NCBI RefSeq assembly: GCF_046105845.1 | Contig: NZ_CP151004.1 | Direction: 5' to 3' (one strand) | Length of the DNA stretch: 64,000 nucleotides | Origin: Escherichia coli | Lineage (GTDB): Bacteria > Pseudomonadota > Gammaproteobacteria > Enterobacterales > Enterobacteriaceae | In this document: piece by piece, positions 1-62,444 of the stretch | Numbering within the stretch: the first letter of the stretch is position 1 | Layout of the letters: the number at the start of each line of letters is the position of its first letter | Made by a program: the position numbers and the translations under genes | Notes under the pieces: model-generated | Databases searched by the model: none | Seen by the model: only the letters and a program-made list of their open reading frames with translations | Told to the model about the DNA's origin: nothing

Positions 1-50
1 GGAAAAGGCGTTTACGTTGCATCCGGCATAAAAACACGCGCACTTCGTTA

Positions 51-79
51 CGGCTTCCCCCAGGAGGCCGTTTTTTTTT
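51..79 (+). terminator. Candidate intrinsic terminator (GC stem cggcttcc/ggaggccg followed by a T9 run), probably ending the upstream gene that lies before the window
   Basis: Seen in sequence: 7-8 bp stem with 4-nt loop followed by ttttttttt at 71-79. Upstream gene not visible in the window. Confidence 0.5.
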
Positions 80-139
80 GCCTGTCATTCTGATTAATTT
101 TCATATTGTCGTTTTTGTGATCATTATCTCGACATTTAA

Positions 140-1075
<936 letters not shown>

Positions 1076-1076
1076 T

Positions 1077-2339
<1,263 letters not shown>

Positions 2340-2348
2340 GGACGGTAT

Positions 2349-2801
2349 ATGACTAACCTGTTTGTTCGTAGCGGAATTTCTTTTGTCGATCGTAGCGAAG
2401 TTTTAACCCATATCGGTAATGAGATGCTCGCGAAAGGTGTGGTTCATGATACCTGGCCACAGGCATTAATTGCCAGAGAAGCAGAATTCCCTACCGGGAT
2501 AATGCTTGAGCAGCACGCCATTGCAATACCGCATTGTGAGGCGATTCATGCTAAGTCGTCAGCCATTTATCTGTTAAGGCCTACAAATAAAGTTCATTTT
2601 CAGCAAGCGGATGATGATAACGACGTGGCGGTATCGTTGGTTATTGCGTTAATTGTGGAAAATCCGCAGCAGCAATTGAAACTTTTACGCTGTTTATTTG
2701 GCAAGTTACAACAGCCCGATATCGTCGAGACACTAATCACTCTTCCTGAAACCCAGTTAAAGGAATACTTCACAAAGTATGTTTTAGATTCAGACGAATA
2801 A
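2349..2801 (+). CDS. gatA: Galactitol-specific PTS enzyme IIA
   Basis: 150-aa ORF in gat operon order. Confidence 0.9.
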   Translation: MTNLFVRSGISFVDRSEVLTHIGNEMLAKGVVHDTWPQALIAREAEFPTGIMLEQHAIAIPHCEAIHAKSSAIYLLRPTNKVHFQQADDDNDVAVSLVIALIVENPQQQLKLLRCLFGKLQQPDIVETLITLPETQLKEYFTKYVLDSDE

Positions 2802-2831
2802 ATCCCTCTGTAACAATAAAAAGGACTATTT

Positions 2832-3116
2832 ATGAAACGCAAGATTATTGTCGCTTGCGGAGGCGCGGTTGCGACCTCCACGATGGCGGCGGAAGAAATT
2901 AAAGAGTTGTGTCAGAGTCATAATATTCCTGTTGAATTAATCCAGTGTCGGGTTAATGAAATAGAGACCTATATGGATGGCGTGCATTTGATATGTACTA
3001 CCGCCAAAGTTGACCGTAGTTTTGGCGATATTCCGTTAGTTCACGGCATGCCTTTTGTTTCTGGTGTCGGTATCGAAGCATTACAAAATAAAATTCTGAC
3101 TATCTTACAGGGGTGA
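2832..3116 (+). CDS. gatB: Galactitol-specific PTS enzyme IIB
   Basis: 94-aa ORF with N-terminal Cys motif ([11 protein letters not shown]) typical of EIIB; operon context. Confidence 0.9.
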
Positions 3117-3119
3117 CCT

Positions 3120-4475
3120 ATGTTTTCAGAAGTCATGCGTTATATTCTCGACCTCGGCCCTACGGTGATGCTGCCGATTGTCATCATTATTTTTTCTAAA
3201 ATATTAGGCATGAAGGCAGGCGATTGCTTTAAAGCGGGTCTGCATATCGGGATTGGCTTTGTTGGCATTGGCCTTGTGATTGGCTTAATGCTGGATTCCA
3301 TTGGTCCGGCGGCGAAAGCGATGGCGGAAAATTTCGACCTGAAACTGCATGTGGTCGATGTCGGTTGGCCGGGCTCTTCACCAATGACCTGGGCGTCGCA
3401 AATTGCGCTGGTGGCGATTCCGATTGCGATTCTGGTTAACGTGGCGATGCTACTGACCCGTATGACGCGGGTGGTAAATGTTGATATCTGGAATATCTGG
3501 CATATGACCTTCACCGGCGCATTGCTGCATCTGGCAACCGGTTCATGGATGTTAGGGATGGCGGGTGTGGTAATTCACGCGGCGTTTGTTTATAAGCTCG
3601 GCGACTGGTTTGCCCGCGATACCCGAAATTTCTTTGAGCTGGAAGGCATTGCTATTCCGCACGGTACGTCGGCGTATCTGGGGCCAATTGCGGTGCTGGT
3701 GGATGCTATCATCGAGAAAATCCCAGGCGTTAACCGTATTAAATTTAGCGCCGACGATATTCAGCGCAAATTTGGCCCATTTGGCGAACCTGTCACCGTG
3801 GGCTTTGTGATGGGGCTGATTATCGGCATCCTCGCGGGTTACGATGTCAAAGGTGTATTGCAGCTGGCGGTAAAAACGGCGGCAGTTATGCTGCTGATGC
3901 CACGGGTGATTAAACCCATCATGGATGGTTTAACGCCTATCGCTAAGCAGGCCCGTAGTCGTTTACAGGCGAAGTTCGGCGGTCAGGAGTTCCTGATTGG
4001 CCTTGATCCGGCGTTGCTGCTGGGGCATACGGCGGTGGTATCGGCAAGCCTGATTTTTATCCCGCTCACCATTTTAATTGCTGTTTGTGTGCCGGGTAAT
4101 CAGGTGCTGCCGTTTGGCGATCTTGCAACTATCGGCTTCTTTGTGGCGATGGCAGTTGCCGTGCATCGTGGAAATCTGTTCCGCACCTTAATCTCGGGTG
4201 TCATCATTATGAGCATCACCCTGTGGATCGCGACGCAAACTATTGGTTTGCACACCCAACTGGCGGCTAATGCTGGGGCGTTAAAAGCCGGAGGTATGGT
4301 GGCTTCAATGGATCAGGGCGGTTCTCCCATTACCTGGTTACTGATTCAGCTTTTCTCCCCGCAAAATATTCCCGGTTTCATTATTATCGGCGCAATTTAT
4401 CTTACCGGTATTTTCATGACCTGGCGTAGAGCGCGTGGTTTTATTAAACAAGAGAAAGCCGTTCTCGCAGAATAA
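3120..4475 (+). CDS. gatC: Galactitol-specific PTS enzyme IIC permease
   Basis: 451-aa highly hydrophobic polytopic ORF; operon context. Confidence 0.92.
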   Translation: MFSEVMRYILDLGPTVMLPIVIIIFSKILGMKAGDCFKAGLHIGIGFVGIGLVIGLMLDSIGPAAKAMAENFDLKLHVVDVGWPGSSPMTWASQIALVAIPIAILVNVAMLLTRMTRVVNVDIWNIWHMTFTGALLHLATGSWMLGMAGVVIHAAFVYKLGDWFARDTRNFFELEGIAIPHGTSAYLGPIAVLVDAIIEKIPGVNRIKFSADDIQRKFGPFGEPVTVGFVMGLIIGILAGYDVKGVLQLAVKTAAVMLLMPRVIKPIMDGLTPIAKQARSRLQAKFGGQEFLIGLDPALLLGHTAVVSASLIFIPLTILIAVCVPGNQVLPFGDLATIGFFVAMAVAVHRGNLFRTLISGVIIMSITLWIATQTIGLHTQLAANAGALKAGGMVASMDQGGSPITWLLIQLFSPQNIPGFIIIGAIYLTGIFMTWRRARGFIKQEKAVLAE

Positions 4476-4522
4476 TTTTTACCTGAGGGGGAGTTTATCC
4501 CCCTTAATAATCAGGAGTTTTT

Positions 4523-5563
4523 ATGAAATCAGTGGTGAATGATACTGATGGTATCGTACGCGTTGCCCAACGAGTCATTCCTGAAATTAAACATCAGGAT
4601 GAGGTGCGGGTAAAAATTGCCAGCTCGGGATTATGTGGTTCCGATTTACCCAGAATTTTTAAAAATGGTGCACATTATTATCCAATAACGTTAGGCCATG
4701 AATTTAGCGGCTATATTGATGCTGTGGGATCCGGTGTTGATGATTTACATCCTGGCGATGCGGTTGCCTGTGTGCCGTTATTACCCTGTTTTACTTGTCC
4801 AGAGTGTCTGAAAGGGTTTTATTCCCAGTGCGCAAAATATGATTTTATTGGTTCACGGCGTGATGGTGGGTTTGCCGAATATATTGTCGTTAACCGAAAA
4901 AATGTCTTTGCTCTACCTGCGGATATGCCTATTGAGGATGGGGCTTTTATTGAACCGATTACCGTTGGCCTGCATGCTTTTCATTTAGCGCAAGGTTGTG
5001 AGAATAAAAACGTTATTATTATTGGTGCCGGAACCATTGGCCTGCTGGCTATTCAGTGCGCTGTCGCGCTGGGAGCAAAGAGTGTGACGGCGATCGACAT
5101 TAGCTCAGAAAAACTGGCACTGGCAAAATCTTTCGGTGCGATGCAAACATTTAACAGCCTTGAAATGAGCGCGCCGCAAATGCAGGGCGTTTTACGCGAG
5201 CTGCGCTTTAATCAGCTTATCCTCGAGACGGCTGGCGTCCCGCAAACCGTCGAACTGGCGGTAGAGATTGCCGGGCCTCATGCCCAGCTGGCGCTGGTGG
5301 GCACGTTGCATCAGGATCTGCATTTAACATCGGCAACGTTTGGCAAAATATTACGTAAAGAGCTGACGGTTATCGGCAGCTGGATGAACTACTCCAGCCC
5401 TTGGCCGGGGCAGGAGTGGGAAACGGCGAGCCGGTTGCTGACAGAACGTAAGTTAAGCCTGGAGCCATTAATCGCTCACCGTGGAAGCTTTGAAAGCTTC
5501 GCCCAGGCGGTGCGTGACATCGCTCGTAATGCTATGCCGGGCAAAGTATTGCTCATTCCCTGA
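4523..5563 (+). CDS. gatD: Galactitol-1-phosphate 5-dehydrogenase (Zn-dependent MDR family)
   Basis: 346-aa ORF with zinc-ADH Cys/His motifs (GLCGSDL, CFTCPEC) and Rossmann motif GAGTIG. Confidence 0.92.
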   Translation: MKSVVNDTDGIVRVAQRVIPEIKHQDEVRVKIASSGLCGSDLPRIFKNGAHYYPITLGHEFSGYIDAVGSGVDDLHPGDAVACVPLLPCFTCPECLKGFYSQCAKYDFIGSRRDGGFAEYIVVNRKNVFALPADMPIEDGAFIEPITVGLHAFHLAQGCENKNVIIIGAGTIGLLAIQCAVALGAKSVTAIDISSEKLALAKSFGAMQTFNSLEMSAPQMQGVLRELRFNQLILETAGVPQTVELAVEIAGPHAQLALVGTLHQDLHLTSATFGKILRKELTVIGSWMNYSSPWPGQEWETASRLLTERKLSLEPLIAHRGSFESFAQAVRDIARNAMPGKVLLIP

Positions 5564-5569
5564 AACCGC

Positions 5570-5590
5570 GGGCCAGCGTGATGCTGGCCC
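5570..5590 (+). other. Perfect 8-bp stem-loop (gggccagc/gctggccc) between gatD and gatR, no U-tract
   Basis: Seen in sequence; could be an RNA-stability or partial termination element. Confidence 0.3.
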
Positions 5591-5668
5591 GGTATTGTGC
5601 AAAACAGATCATTCACCAATGGTCCCCCTTCGTTTACACTAGCCACAATTGAATATGGGTAAATGACG

Positions 5669-6442
5669 ATGAATTCATTCGAGCGAAGGAATAAGATCAT
5701 CCAATTAGTGAATGAACAGGGAACCGTGCTTGTTCAGGATCTGGCGGGAGTATTTGCTGCCTCGGAAGCGACAATCCGTGCCGATTTGCGCTTTCTTGAA
5801 CAAAAAGGCGTGGTTACGCGCTTTCATGGCGGTGCGGCGAAAATAATGTCCGGTAATAGTGAAACCGAGACCCAGGAAGTCGGGTTTAAAGAGCGATTTC
5901 AGCTCGCCAGTGCGCCAAAAAACAGAATAGCGCAGGCGGCAGTCAAAATGATCCACGAAGGGATGACCGTTATTCTCGACAGCGGAAGTACGACAATGCT
6001 TATCGCCGAAGGTTTAATGACCGCCAAAAATATCACGGTGATTACCAACAGTCTCCCGGCGGCGTTTGCCCTTTCCGAAAATAAAGACATTACTCTGGTC
6101 GTCTGTGGTGGGACCGTCCGCCATAAAACACGCTCGATGCATGGTTCCATTGCCGAGCGTTCATTGCAGGATATTAATGCCGATTTAATGTTTGTGGGTG
6201 CTGATGGTATTGATGCGGTTAATGGTATTACGACCTTTAATGAAGGCTATTCGATTAGCGGGGCGATGGTCACAGCCGCAAATAAAGTGATTGCCGTTCT
6301 CGATTCATCGAAATTTAATCGTCGCGGTTTTAATCAGGTACTGCCAATCGAAAAAATCGACATTATTATTACCGACGATGCTGTGTCAGAGGTGGATAAA
6401 CTGGCATTGCAGAAGACACGGGTGAAATTAATTACGGTGTAG
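5669..6442 (+). CDS. gatR: DeoR-family transcriptional repressor of the gat operon (apparently intact)
   Basis: ORF 5663..6442 (259 aa); N-terminal HTH, DeoR-type C-terminal domain. Start set at 5669 (MNSFERR...), with 5663 as alternative. Uninterrupted reading frame. Confidence 0.88.
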   Translation: MNSFERRNKIIQLVNEQGTVLVQDLAGVFAASEATIRADLRFLEQKGVVTRFHGGAAKIMSGNSETETQEVGFKERFQLASAPKNRIAQAAVKMIHEGMTVILDSGSTTMLIAEGLMTAKNITVITNSLPAAFALSENKDITLVVCGGTVRHKTRSMHGSIAERSLQDINADLMFVGADGIDAVNGITTFNEGYSISGAMVTAANKVIAVLDSSKFNRRGFNQVLPIEKIDIIITDDAVSEVDKLALQKTRVKLITV

Positions 6443-6455
6443 TATTGCTCTGTAT

Positions 6456-6484
6456 GCCGGATAAAGTTTTTACACCGCATCCGG
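6456..6484. repeat. REP-like palindromic element (gccggat...atccggc) in the convergent gatR/yegS intergenic region
   Basis: Seen in sequence: inverted repeat GCCGGAT / ATCCGGC typical of enterobacterial REP units. Confidence 0.6.
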
Positions 6485-6523
6485 CATTACGGATTCTCCC
6501 TGGTTCAAGAGAGAATAGTGTGA

Positions 6524-7423
6524 TTAACGCAACAATGGGCAATCTGGTGGTAATCGACAACGCAACGCCGCCGGAAGTATTTCAATATGAAAGTTTTGTC
6601 CGCTCAACGGTTCGCCATCAAGATTAAAAGTGATTTCGTGTGGGGCTTGTATATCAAACCACGACGAAGCGCCTTCGATAATATTCGGGTTATCTTCGTC
6701 AGATTTTAATGTTGATACGAGAGCCGGAAGAATTTCATCGCCGGTAAAAATGCGCAGTTGCAGCAAGCCATCGTTAATTAACGCGTTCGGGCACAATTGC
6801 TGACCGCCACCGGCCTGACGCCCGTTACCAATACCAATGACCAGGGCGTCACCTTGCCAGTGAAAGTTTTCACCGCGGATCTCACAACGGTCCGGTTGCA
6901 GAGTATCCATGCGCATTAAGCCATGAATGATGTAAGAGACGCCACCCAGCGCGGCTTTTAATTTTTCCGGCGTTTCTGTGGTAATACGCGTCCCAAATCC
7001 GCCTGTCGCCATATTAATAAAACAGGTTTGTTTGTTGACCTGCGCCATATCTATCGCAATGGCGTCACCGGCAATTGCCAGTTTCAGCGCCTTATCCAGT
7101 GCCTCAGGAATCCCTACACTGGTGGCAAAATCATTGGCGGTTCCTAATGGTAAAATTCCCAGCGCGGGTATGTCATCCCCCTCACACTGAATCAACGCCG
7201 TAGAAACTTCATTAATGGTGCCATCGCCACCACCGGCAATCACCGTTGCGACGCCCAACTTCCGGGCCTCCTCTACATATCGTGCGGCATCGCCTTTCTC
7301 CCAGGTGACCCGCACATGGATCGTCATTCCTTCCTCACGCAACAGCATAATTGCTTCGCGCAAGGGTAGATTGTCAGTACTTTTGCCATTAAGAATCAGT
7401 AAGCTGGCGGGAAAATCTGCCAT
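6524..7423 (-). CDS. yegS: Lipid kinase YegS (diacylglycerol-kinase catalytic-domain family)
   Basis: 299-aa ORF with GGDGT motif; recognised as YegS. Confidence 0.9.
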
Positions 7424-8154: not shown

Positions 8155-8312
8155 GAATATTTTTTGGTAAGCGTCAAACATGCGCGTTCTGGTTGTGCTT
8201 AGCCGGAACCAGTGCGAGCACGATGCCGTTACGTGAAAGGCATCGTGCTATGAAGGGAGATTCTATCGATGTGGTCAATGGAAGACGGTGACCAGGGATA
8301 GGGCTTATGCAT

Positions 8313-8399
8313 AAAAAATAAGCCCGTGTAAGGGAGATTACACAGGCTAAGGAGGTGGTTCCTGGTACAGCTAGCATTTTATGGGTTATGTTTTTCAGC
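8313..8399 (-). ncRNA. cyaR: CyaR (RyeE) Hfq-dependent small RNA
   Basis: Minus-strand sequence GCTGAAAAACATAACCCATAAAATGCTAGCTGTACCAGGAACCACCTCCTTAGCCTGTGTAATCTCCCTTACACGGGCTTATTTTTT matches my recollection of CyaR, including the terminator hairpin (CCCTTACACGGGC) plus U-tract; located downstream of yegQ as in K-12. Confidence 0.85.
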
Positions 8400-8433
8400 G
8401 AAACGGATGATAACCTTAATAAATGCAGCTGTA

Positions 8434-8449
8434 TGTGATCGGTTTCTAA
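8434..8449. promoter_or_regulatory. Candidate CRP site (TGTGA-N6-TCTAA) centred about 42 bp upstream of the CyaR 5' end
   Basis: Seen in sequence: TGTGATCGGTTTCTAA; CyaR is known to be cAMP-CRP activated. The right half-site is imperfect. Confidence 0.45.
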
Positions 8450-8483
8450 GAATTTTCCATCCGGGAAAAATAATCGAAATTAA

Positions 8484-21719: not shown

Positions 21720-21859
21720 CGGGAAAGCCCCTCCCGAGGAAGGGGCCATAAATAAGGAAAGGGTCATGATGAAGCTACTCATCATCGTGGTGCTCTTAGT
21801 CATTAGCTGGCCAGCTTACTAAGACTACCAGGGCGGGGGAAACCCCGCTCTACCCTCAC
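21720..21859 (-). ncRNA. Sib-family antisense sRNA (antitoxin) copy 1, approximate boundaries
   Basis: Minus-strand promoter: -35 TTGACA (rc of 21888-21893), 17-bp spacer, -10 TACTTT (rc of 21865-21870). Minus-strand terminator hairpin (rc of 21727-21746) plus U-rich tract. Fully overlaps the ibs ORF in antisense. Confidence 0.6.
21766..21822 (+). CDS. Ibs-family type I toxin peptide, copy 1 (MMKLLIIVVLLVISWPAY)
   Basis: 18-codon ORF with strong SD (aaggaaaggg) 6 nt upstream; hydrophobic single-TM peptide characteristic of Ibs toxins. The ibsA/ibsB/extra-copy assignment is uncertain. Confidence 0.8.
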   Translation: MMKLLIIVVLLVISWPAY

Positions 21860-22047
21860 TCCTGAAAGTATGCCTTCACGATAAGATTGTCAATCTGCAG
21901 GCTTTGCAGTCTGCGATCCTGCCAGCAAATATTCTTTGCGAGACGTTACGCAATAATCACACTGGAAACTATTTTATCCGCAAGTCAGCGATAGACTGCA
22001 TTCAGGGCGAAAGGAGGTAAGCCGACGATTTCAGCGGGACGCTGAAA

Positions 22048-22187
22048 CGGGAAAGCCCCTCCCGAGGAAGGGGCCTTAAATAAGGAAAGGGTCATGATGA
22101 AGATACTCATCATCGTGGTGCTCTTAGTGATTAGCTACCCAGCATACTAAGACTACCAGGGCGGGGGAAACCCCGCTCTACCCTCAC
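22048..22187 (-). ncRNA. Sib-family antisense sRNA (antitoxin) copy 2, approximate boundaries
   Basis: Same promoter (TTGACA-17-TAATTT) and terminator architecture as copy 1, shifted by one repeat unit. Confidence 0.55.
22094..22150 (+). CDS. Ibs-family type I toxin peptide, copy 2 (MMKILIIVVLLVISYPAY)
   Basis: Same architecture as copy 1 in the second repeat unit. Confidence 0.8.
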   Translation: MMKILIIVVLLVISYPAY

Positions 22188-22376
22188 TCCTGAAATTATG
22201 CCTTCACGATAAGATTGTCAATCCGCAGGCTTTGCAGTCTGCGATCCTGCCAGCAAATATTCTTTGCGAGTCGTTACGCAATAATCACAGAGGAAACTAT
22301 TTTATTCACGCGTTAGCGATAGACTGCATTCAGGGCGAAAGGAGGTAAGCCGACGATTTCAGCGGGACGCTGAAAC

Positions 22377-22520
22377 GGGAAACCCTCTCCCGGAGAAGAG
22401 GGCTTTTAATAAGGAAAGGGTTATGATGAAGCACGTCATCATACTGGTGATACTCTTAGTGATTAGCTTCCAGGCTTACTAAGAACACCAGGGGGAGGGG
22501 GAAACCTCTCCCTAACCCTC
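22377..22520 (-). ncRNA. Sib-family antisense sRNA (antitoxin) copy 3, approximate boundaries
   Basis: Minus-strand TTGACA (rc of 22551-22556), 17-bp spacer, TAATTT; terminator-like hairpin near 22385-22405. Confidence 0.55.
22423..22482 (+). CDS. Ibs-family type I toxin peptide, copy 3 (MMKHVIILVILLVISFQAY)
   Basis: 19-codon ORF in the third repeat unit with SD aaggaaaggg. Confidence 0.8.
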   Translation: MMKHVIILVILLVISFQAY

Positions 22521-22702
22521 ACTCCTGAAATTATGTCACTCCGCCCTTAGTGTCAATCGACGGCTCTCCGTTCTTGCGAGGCGAATAGCAAAATTTTCTG
22601 CGCCGCCGGGCCTAATTCTGAAAGTTTCTTCGTTTGCTCTTATTTCATTATTGCAATCGGTATGATACCGGACCTCGATAATTCTCTAAGAAAGGATTTC
22701 TT

Positions 22703-38327: not shown

Positions 38328-38366
38328 CAGTGTATTGGTAGCTAAAAAGCCAGGGGCGGTAGCGTG
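38328..38366 (+). promoter_or_regulatory. JUMPStart element with ops site (GGCGGTAGCGTG at 38355-38366) in the wza 5' leader; RfaH recruitment site
   Basis: Seen in sequence: cagtgtattggtagctaaaaagccaggggcggtagcgtg. The ops core matches GGCGGTAGnnTG exactly, and the 3' end of the element is shared with the rfb JUMPStart at 62406-62444. Confidence 0.8.
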
Positions 38367-52705: not shown

Positions 52706-52806
52706 CAGTTGCATAATCAACCGGATTAATTCTTCGGTAAATAACGACAAAAACAAAATTGGCCGCTTCGGTCAGGGCCAACTATTGCCTGAAAAAGGGT
52801 AACGAT

Positions 52807-62405: not shown

Positions 62406-62444
62406 CAGTGCTCTGGTAGCTGTAAAGCCAGGGGCGGTAGCGTG
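62406..62444 (+). promoter_or_regulatory. JUMPStart element with ops site (GGCGGTAGCGTG at 62433-62444) in the rfb operon leader
   Basis: Seen in sequence: cagtgctctggtagctgtaaagccaggggcggtagcgtg; matches the JUMPStart consensus as I recall it, and the ops core is exact. Confidence 0.85.

Follow-up and report, generated by a model that had tools for sequence, protein, structure and literature searches.

An intact gatR gene behind an intact gatYZABCD operon predicts galactitol-inducible gat expression in an Escherichia coli strain, unlike in K-12

The galactitol repressor gene gatR of Escherichia coli has been described in both a disrupted and a functional state. In K-12 MG1655 (NC_000913.3), gatR (b4498) is annotated as a two-piece pseudogene around an IS3E element at 2170171-2171428 that carries insE5/insF5, and expression of the gat genes in this strain is constitutive through an IS element in gatR (PMC5850726; bioRxiv 10.64898/2026.01.05.697630). 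The element is named IS1 in one passage of PMC5850726 but IS3E in bioRxiv 10.64898/2026.01.05.697630 and in the annotation. This K-12 defect shapes the outcomes of evolution experiments in the mouse gut (PMC5850726). When the gatR gene of E. coli HS was put in place of the MG1655 pseudogene, regulation of the gat operon was restored, and new IS insertions in the restored gene again gave rise to constitutive mutants in mice (PMC5850726). LF82 and CFT073, which are natural isolates, gain an advantage in the gut when gatR is silenced by CRISPRi (bioRxiv 10.64898/2026.01.05.697630), which argues that the repressor is active in natural isolates. A wild-type gatR allele, that of strain EC3132, was described by Nobelmann and Lengeler (1996), as their work is cited in PMC9997739. 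The GatR protein of Salmonella enterica serovar Typhimurium is likewise the repressor of the gat promoters, and deletion of its helix-turn-helix abolishes repression (PMC7972205); it belongs to another species. Within E. coli, a further relative is AgaR, the repressor of the N-acetylgalactosamine aga cluster, which has the same two-domain architecture as GatR and whose curated model is the nearest to it, although its locus and its substrate are different. Judged by product names, the aga and gat pathways both end at tagatose-1,6-bisphosphate aldolases, namely KbaY/KbaZ and GatY/GatZ.

We analyzed the gat locus of another E. coli strain in a stretch of 64,000 nt from contig NZ_CP151004.1, here called the window (table 1). 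According to the open reading frame listing and its translation, a single uninterrupted frame of 259 codons with an ATG start runs along the plus strand from 5663 to 6442. Re-translation of this interval revealed neither a frameshift nor a premature stop, and the continuous DeoR-family frame of 257-259 codons that a preliminary description of this DNA had reported is confirmed, with both domains of the family present. In 259-aa numbering, Pfam PF08220 (HTH_DeoR) matches residues 8-60 (E=1.3e-16, 60.5 bits against a cut-off of 21) and PF00455 (DeoRC) matches residues 85-238 (E=2.5e-51, 174.2 bits against a cut-off of 31.8), and these E-values exclude a chance open reading frame. A further sequence match (E=1.9e-11) is to the solved structure 7l6l, which is that of the C-terminal domain of the deoxyribose operon repressor. 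Its N-terminal HTH_DeoR domain, followed by a C-terminal DeoRC domain for sensing and oligomerisation, places it in the DeoR/GlpR family. With regard to the start codon, ATG 5669 gives a product of 257 aa and is the start used by RefSeq, whose CDS in other strains measures 774 nt. On inspection, a GGG at 5657-5659 lies 9 nt ahead of this ATG and only 3 nt ahead of ATG 5663, a better Shine-Dalgarno spacing that makes ATG 5669 the likelier start of gatR.

All six genes of the upstream gatYZABCD operon (194-5563, plus strand) are intact, contain no internal stops, and have the lengths of the HS genes. This includes gatC, which in MG1655 is an annotated pseudogene with a +2 frameshift. In the ST131 strain NZ_CP063774.1, a frameshifted gatC adjoins an intact gatR. 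At 188-193, just 5' of the annotated gatY start, the window reads GTG AAA ATG where K-12 and HS have ATG AAA ATG, so a possible two-codon N-terminal extension of GatY would start with GTG here.

Table 1. Positions of the gat genes and of predicted or candidate elements in the window
Feature	Position	Strand	Remarks
fbaB terminator-like hairpin	50-71		Upstream of predicted gatY promoter
CRP-like site	117-135		TGTGATCATTATCTCGACA; resemblance by inspection
Predicted sigma-70 promoter of gatY	129-158	+	TCGACA, 18-nt spacer, CATTAT; consensus match 9/12
Candidate GatR operator, AgaR type	150-163	+	TTTCATTATGTTTT; overlaps predicted -10 hexamer of gatY
gatY	194-1048	+	
gatZ	1077-2339	+	
gatA	2349-2801	+	
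gatB	2832-3116	+	
gatC	3120-4475	+	Intact, 451 aa
gatD	4523-5563	+	
gatD-gatR spacer	5564-5668	+	9-bp G+C-rich hairpin at 5569-5591, without clear T-run
gatR CDS	5669-6442	+	257 aa plus stop; no internal stop; alternative in-frame ATG 5663 gives 259 aa
Equivalent of K-12 IS3E insertion	5965-5967	+	GAC, 3-bp target duplication; insertion point between 5967 and 5968
REP-like hairpin between convergent gatR and yegS	6450-6492	+	Fold of 6443-6523: -25.4 kcal/mol, z = -3.0

Since the encoded protein is that of the regulating HS allele and gatYZABCD is intact, repressible and galactitol-inducible gat expression is a well-supported prediction for this strain from its sequence. We consider it very probable that 5669-6442 encodes a wild-type GatR that represses the upstream gatYZABCD operon, which comprises the galactitol PTS and catabolism, and that the operon is off without galactitol and induced by it. 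In the mechanism that we propose, the N-terminal winged-helix domain of GatR would bind operators in the promoter of gatY. The strongest candidate lies over the -10 element and has weaker sites on its flanks, and GatR bound there would block RNA polymerase. The DeoRC sensor domain would then bind an effector derived from galactitol, most likely a phosphorylated intermediate of the pathway, and release the DNA. Phosphorylated pathway intermediates are the usual type of effector in the DeoR family. Because effector-bound GatR would leave the promoter DNA, the gat operon is expected to be off in the absence of galactitol and induced in its presence. The CRP-like site may place gat under catabolite control as well.

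The candidate operators were recognized by their resemblance to the pattern TTTCRTTTYRTTTY, which we take to be the AgaR operator core. When this pattern was checked on the aga control regions of K-12, several 14/14 matches were found upstream of agaR-kbaZ and agaS. On both strands of the 64 kb, TTTCATTATGTTTT is the only match of at least 13/14, and a nearly identical site, TTTCATTATGTTTC, occurs in the agaR-kbaZ region of K-12. Matches of 11/14 are found at 99-112 (plus strand), 165-178 (minus strand), and 170-183 (minus strand), and the region of these candidate operators also contains inverted repeats, at 102-114/176-188 and 134-144/158-168. The predicted gatY promoter region is conserved in HS, K-12, MEW, and the ST131 strain. 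This arrangement suggests that GatR may occlude the gatY promoter at several AgaR-like candidate operators. Whether GatR goes so far as to share the operator code of its paralogue AgaR, such that the gat and N-acetylgalactosamine regulons would be cross-regulated by both repressors, is more doubtful, and we think it rather unlikely; such cross-regulation is conceivable because both regulons feed tagatose-bisphosphate aldolases. The intact gatR and its contrast with K-12 are already known from genome annotation and several papers, and the AgaR-type candidate operator, together with the possible cross-talk between GatR and AgaR, is the only thread here that is even mildly new. In the spacer between fbaB and gatY (1-50), alignment reveals that a 78-bp REP-like block of K-12 and HS is absent both here and in MEW.

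An intact gatR need not entail a gat operon that is properly repressible and inducible, given that polymorphisms in the promoter or operator, or poor expression of gatR itself, could interfere. Within the last ~100 bp before gatY there are four SNPs relative to HS and K-12, at 123, 133, 159, and 188. Position 133 belongs to the predicted -35 hexamer and position 159 to the candidate operator. In addition, a consensus scan of 5564-5668 found no recognisable gatR promoter, with hand inspection yielding poor hexamers only, and in the mouse gut gat reportedly stays repressed in LF82 and CFT073 despite the would-be benefit of de-repression (bioRxiv 10.64898/2026.01.05.697630). We nevertheless regard a failure of regulation as improbable. 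MEW has three of the four SNPs as well, and the ST131 strain has two of them, which argues that they are common lineage polymorphisms, and the change at 159 (G for A) retains a purine, as the operator pattern allows. Furthermore, the protein is identical to the HS allele, which is proven to be functional, and the spacer between gatD and gatR is unchanged. We thus continue to favor regulated expression under a wild-type GatR.

The gatD-gatR spacer itself differs at no position from HS or K-12 and at one from the ST131 strain, and as the flanking genes show a dS of ~0.12 it looks to be under constraint. Its predicted fold has an energy of -33.6 kcal/mol (z = -2.4). The spacer probably serves as a partial terminator, carries expression signals of gatR, or both, and it may contain a regulatory element of gatR that has not been described before. 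No AgaR-type site in it reaches 10/14 to the operator pattern. Downstream of gatR, no plus-strand stem with a T-run behind it was found in a terminator scan of the gap to yegS.

Several lines of evidence identify the gene as gatR. The product shares 257/257 residues with HS GatR (WP_001295426.1) and with the rejoined b4498 product of K-12, and the HS gene also agrees in its position after gatD, in its operon, and in the gatD-gatR spacer, the only differences from HS being synonymous nucleotide changes in gatR, 20 in number, and the four SNPs of the gatY promoter region. Public protein data include the exact 257-aa and 259-aa sequences, each from 1000 contigs or more, and both start variants are named "DeoR family galactitol utilization operon repressor" there. 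The gene order gatYZABCD, gatR, and convergent yegS (6524-7423) is also annotated in K-12, MEW, HS, and the ST131 strain. A different sugar repressor of the DeoR family could be proposed in place of GatR, given that in NCBIfam the protein scores best against the models of AgaR (232.9 bits) and SrlR (226.3 bits). Both scores, however, fall below the curated cut-offs, which are 260 bits for AgaR (NF040755, an equivalog model) and 350 bits for SrlR, and GatR is only 38% identical to K-12 AgaR, even if the recognition-helix regions of the two are similar. AgaR is rejected on its score and its identity, and SrlR on its score. With complete identity to the HS and K-12 gatR products, the same position between gatD and yegS, and a public name that specifies galactitol utilization, we give hardly any weight to a paralogue and conclude from these sequence comparisons that the open reading frame at 5669-6442 is gatR.

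Alignment to the K-12 gene locates the point at which the insertion sequence entered, as the preliminary description had expected of such an alignment. The fragments of K-12 gatR measure 299 nt and 475 nt, and their junctions read GAAGGGATGAC, then IS3E, then GAC CGTTATTC, from which GAC is recognized as the target duplication. Transferred to the window, the insertion point splits codon Thr100 (257-aa numbering) after its second base, just ahead of the conserved ILDSGST stretch at which the sensor domain begins. K-12 MG1655 therefore has the same gene with the same flanks, and rejoining its two fragments restores an identical protein, but it carries the 1258-bp IS3E and the GAC duplication after the position that matches 5967. 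In the window, 5960-5974 reads GGGATGACCGTTATT without interruption, so the K-12-type gatR::IS3E is absent from this strain, and inspection of 5965-5970 disclosed neither a duplicated GAC nor an IS scar. The earlier statement that gatR is disrupted by an insertion sequence in K-12 agrees with the annotation of b4498 as split by IS3E, and its corollary, that gat expression is constitutive there owing to this disruption, is so stated in both papers cited above. The possibility that the reference gene is itself intact was also checked, and it is not so, the reference copy being a split pseudogene. The idea that a K-12-like genome recently reverted to the intact frame, or that the frame arose there through faulty assembly, for which we found no point in favor, is refuted by the 20 synonymous differences from K-12 in gatR alone, by a best match among complete E. 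coli genomes of no more than 97.8% identity across 25 kb, by the absence of both the PR-X remnant beside cyaR and the gatC frameshift of K-12, and by the unscarred insertion point, and it retains practically no credibility.

The nucleotide differences within gatR indicate how the gene has been maintained. Relative to HS there are 20 synonymous and no non-synonymous differences (dS 0.12, dN 0), and all 20 differences from the rejoined K-12 copy are likewise synonymous. For the neighbors gatZ, gatC, gatD, and yegS, dN is 0.004-0.010. In the comparison with the ST131 strain, gatR differs at 30 nucleotides and its product at a single residue (I196V). A dS of 0.12 with a dN of 0, and a single change against ST131, indicate that gatR is under strong purifying selection. 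Taken alone, gatR is 99.5% identical to that of strain MEW, which came from an ivory gull. Across 25 kb (1-25000), the closest of 5426 complete E. coli genomes is only 97.8% identical. It seems that the strain either represents a lineage that has been little sampled or is mosaic at this locus.

We then consider how common the intact state is. A gatR match of any kind is present in 5109 of the 5426 complete E. coli genomes, and in 4756 of the 5426 the gene is in one piece with at least 80% covered, a count that reflects one-piece BLAST coverage, which reveals IS-type splits and truncations, and that may include pseudogenes caused by point mutations. The exact K-12 gatR::IS3 junction, sought with an 80-nt probe, is present in 349 of the 5426. 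Records with gatR matches in two pieces number 348, and essentially all of them are accounted for by the 349 junction carriers. In an evenly spaced sample of 60 records, 55 have a full-length gene in a single piece, 4 are broken as in K-12, at query nt 303, and 1 is truncated. Based on the 4756 one-piece genes as against the 349 K-12 junctions, intact gatR is the wild-type norm, that is, the ancestral and common state in E. coli. The carriers of the K-12 junction among the matches listed are ER1709, RP437, and MG1655, and since all of these are laboratory strains of K-12, disruption by IS3E with constitutive expression looks restricted to such strains. The preliminary description had presented the intact gene as notable, and in this respect it does not hold, the intact gene being the usual state. 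It is the K-12 reference that is atypical at the gat locus, with gatR::IS3E and a frameshifted gatC, and the difference of this strain from K-12 is thus the wild-type state and no discovery. Unlike K-12 with its loss of GatR, this strain is expected to regulate its use of galactitol normally.

Other features of the window were noted along the way. The sRNA gene cyaR lies at 8316-8401 on the minus strand, in the 330-bp gap between yegR and trhP (8155-8483), as it does in HS; the cryptic P2 remnant PR-X (ogrK, yegZ), which is found beside cyaR in K-12, is absent here. Three tandem Sib antitoxin RNAs are located at 21751-22556 (Rfam RF00113, 140-150 bits each), and in HS two genes for Ibs toxins are annotated at the equivalent yegL-mdtA locus. 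Finally, two JUMPstart elements and an algC RNA motif are found at 38328-38366, 52753-52802, and 62406-62444, and are probable markers of polysaccharide gene clusters in the later part of the window.
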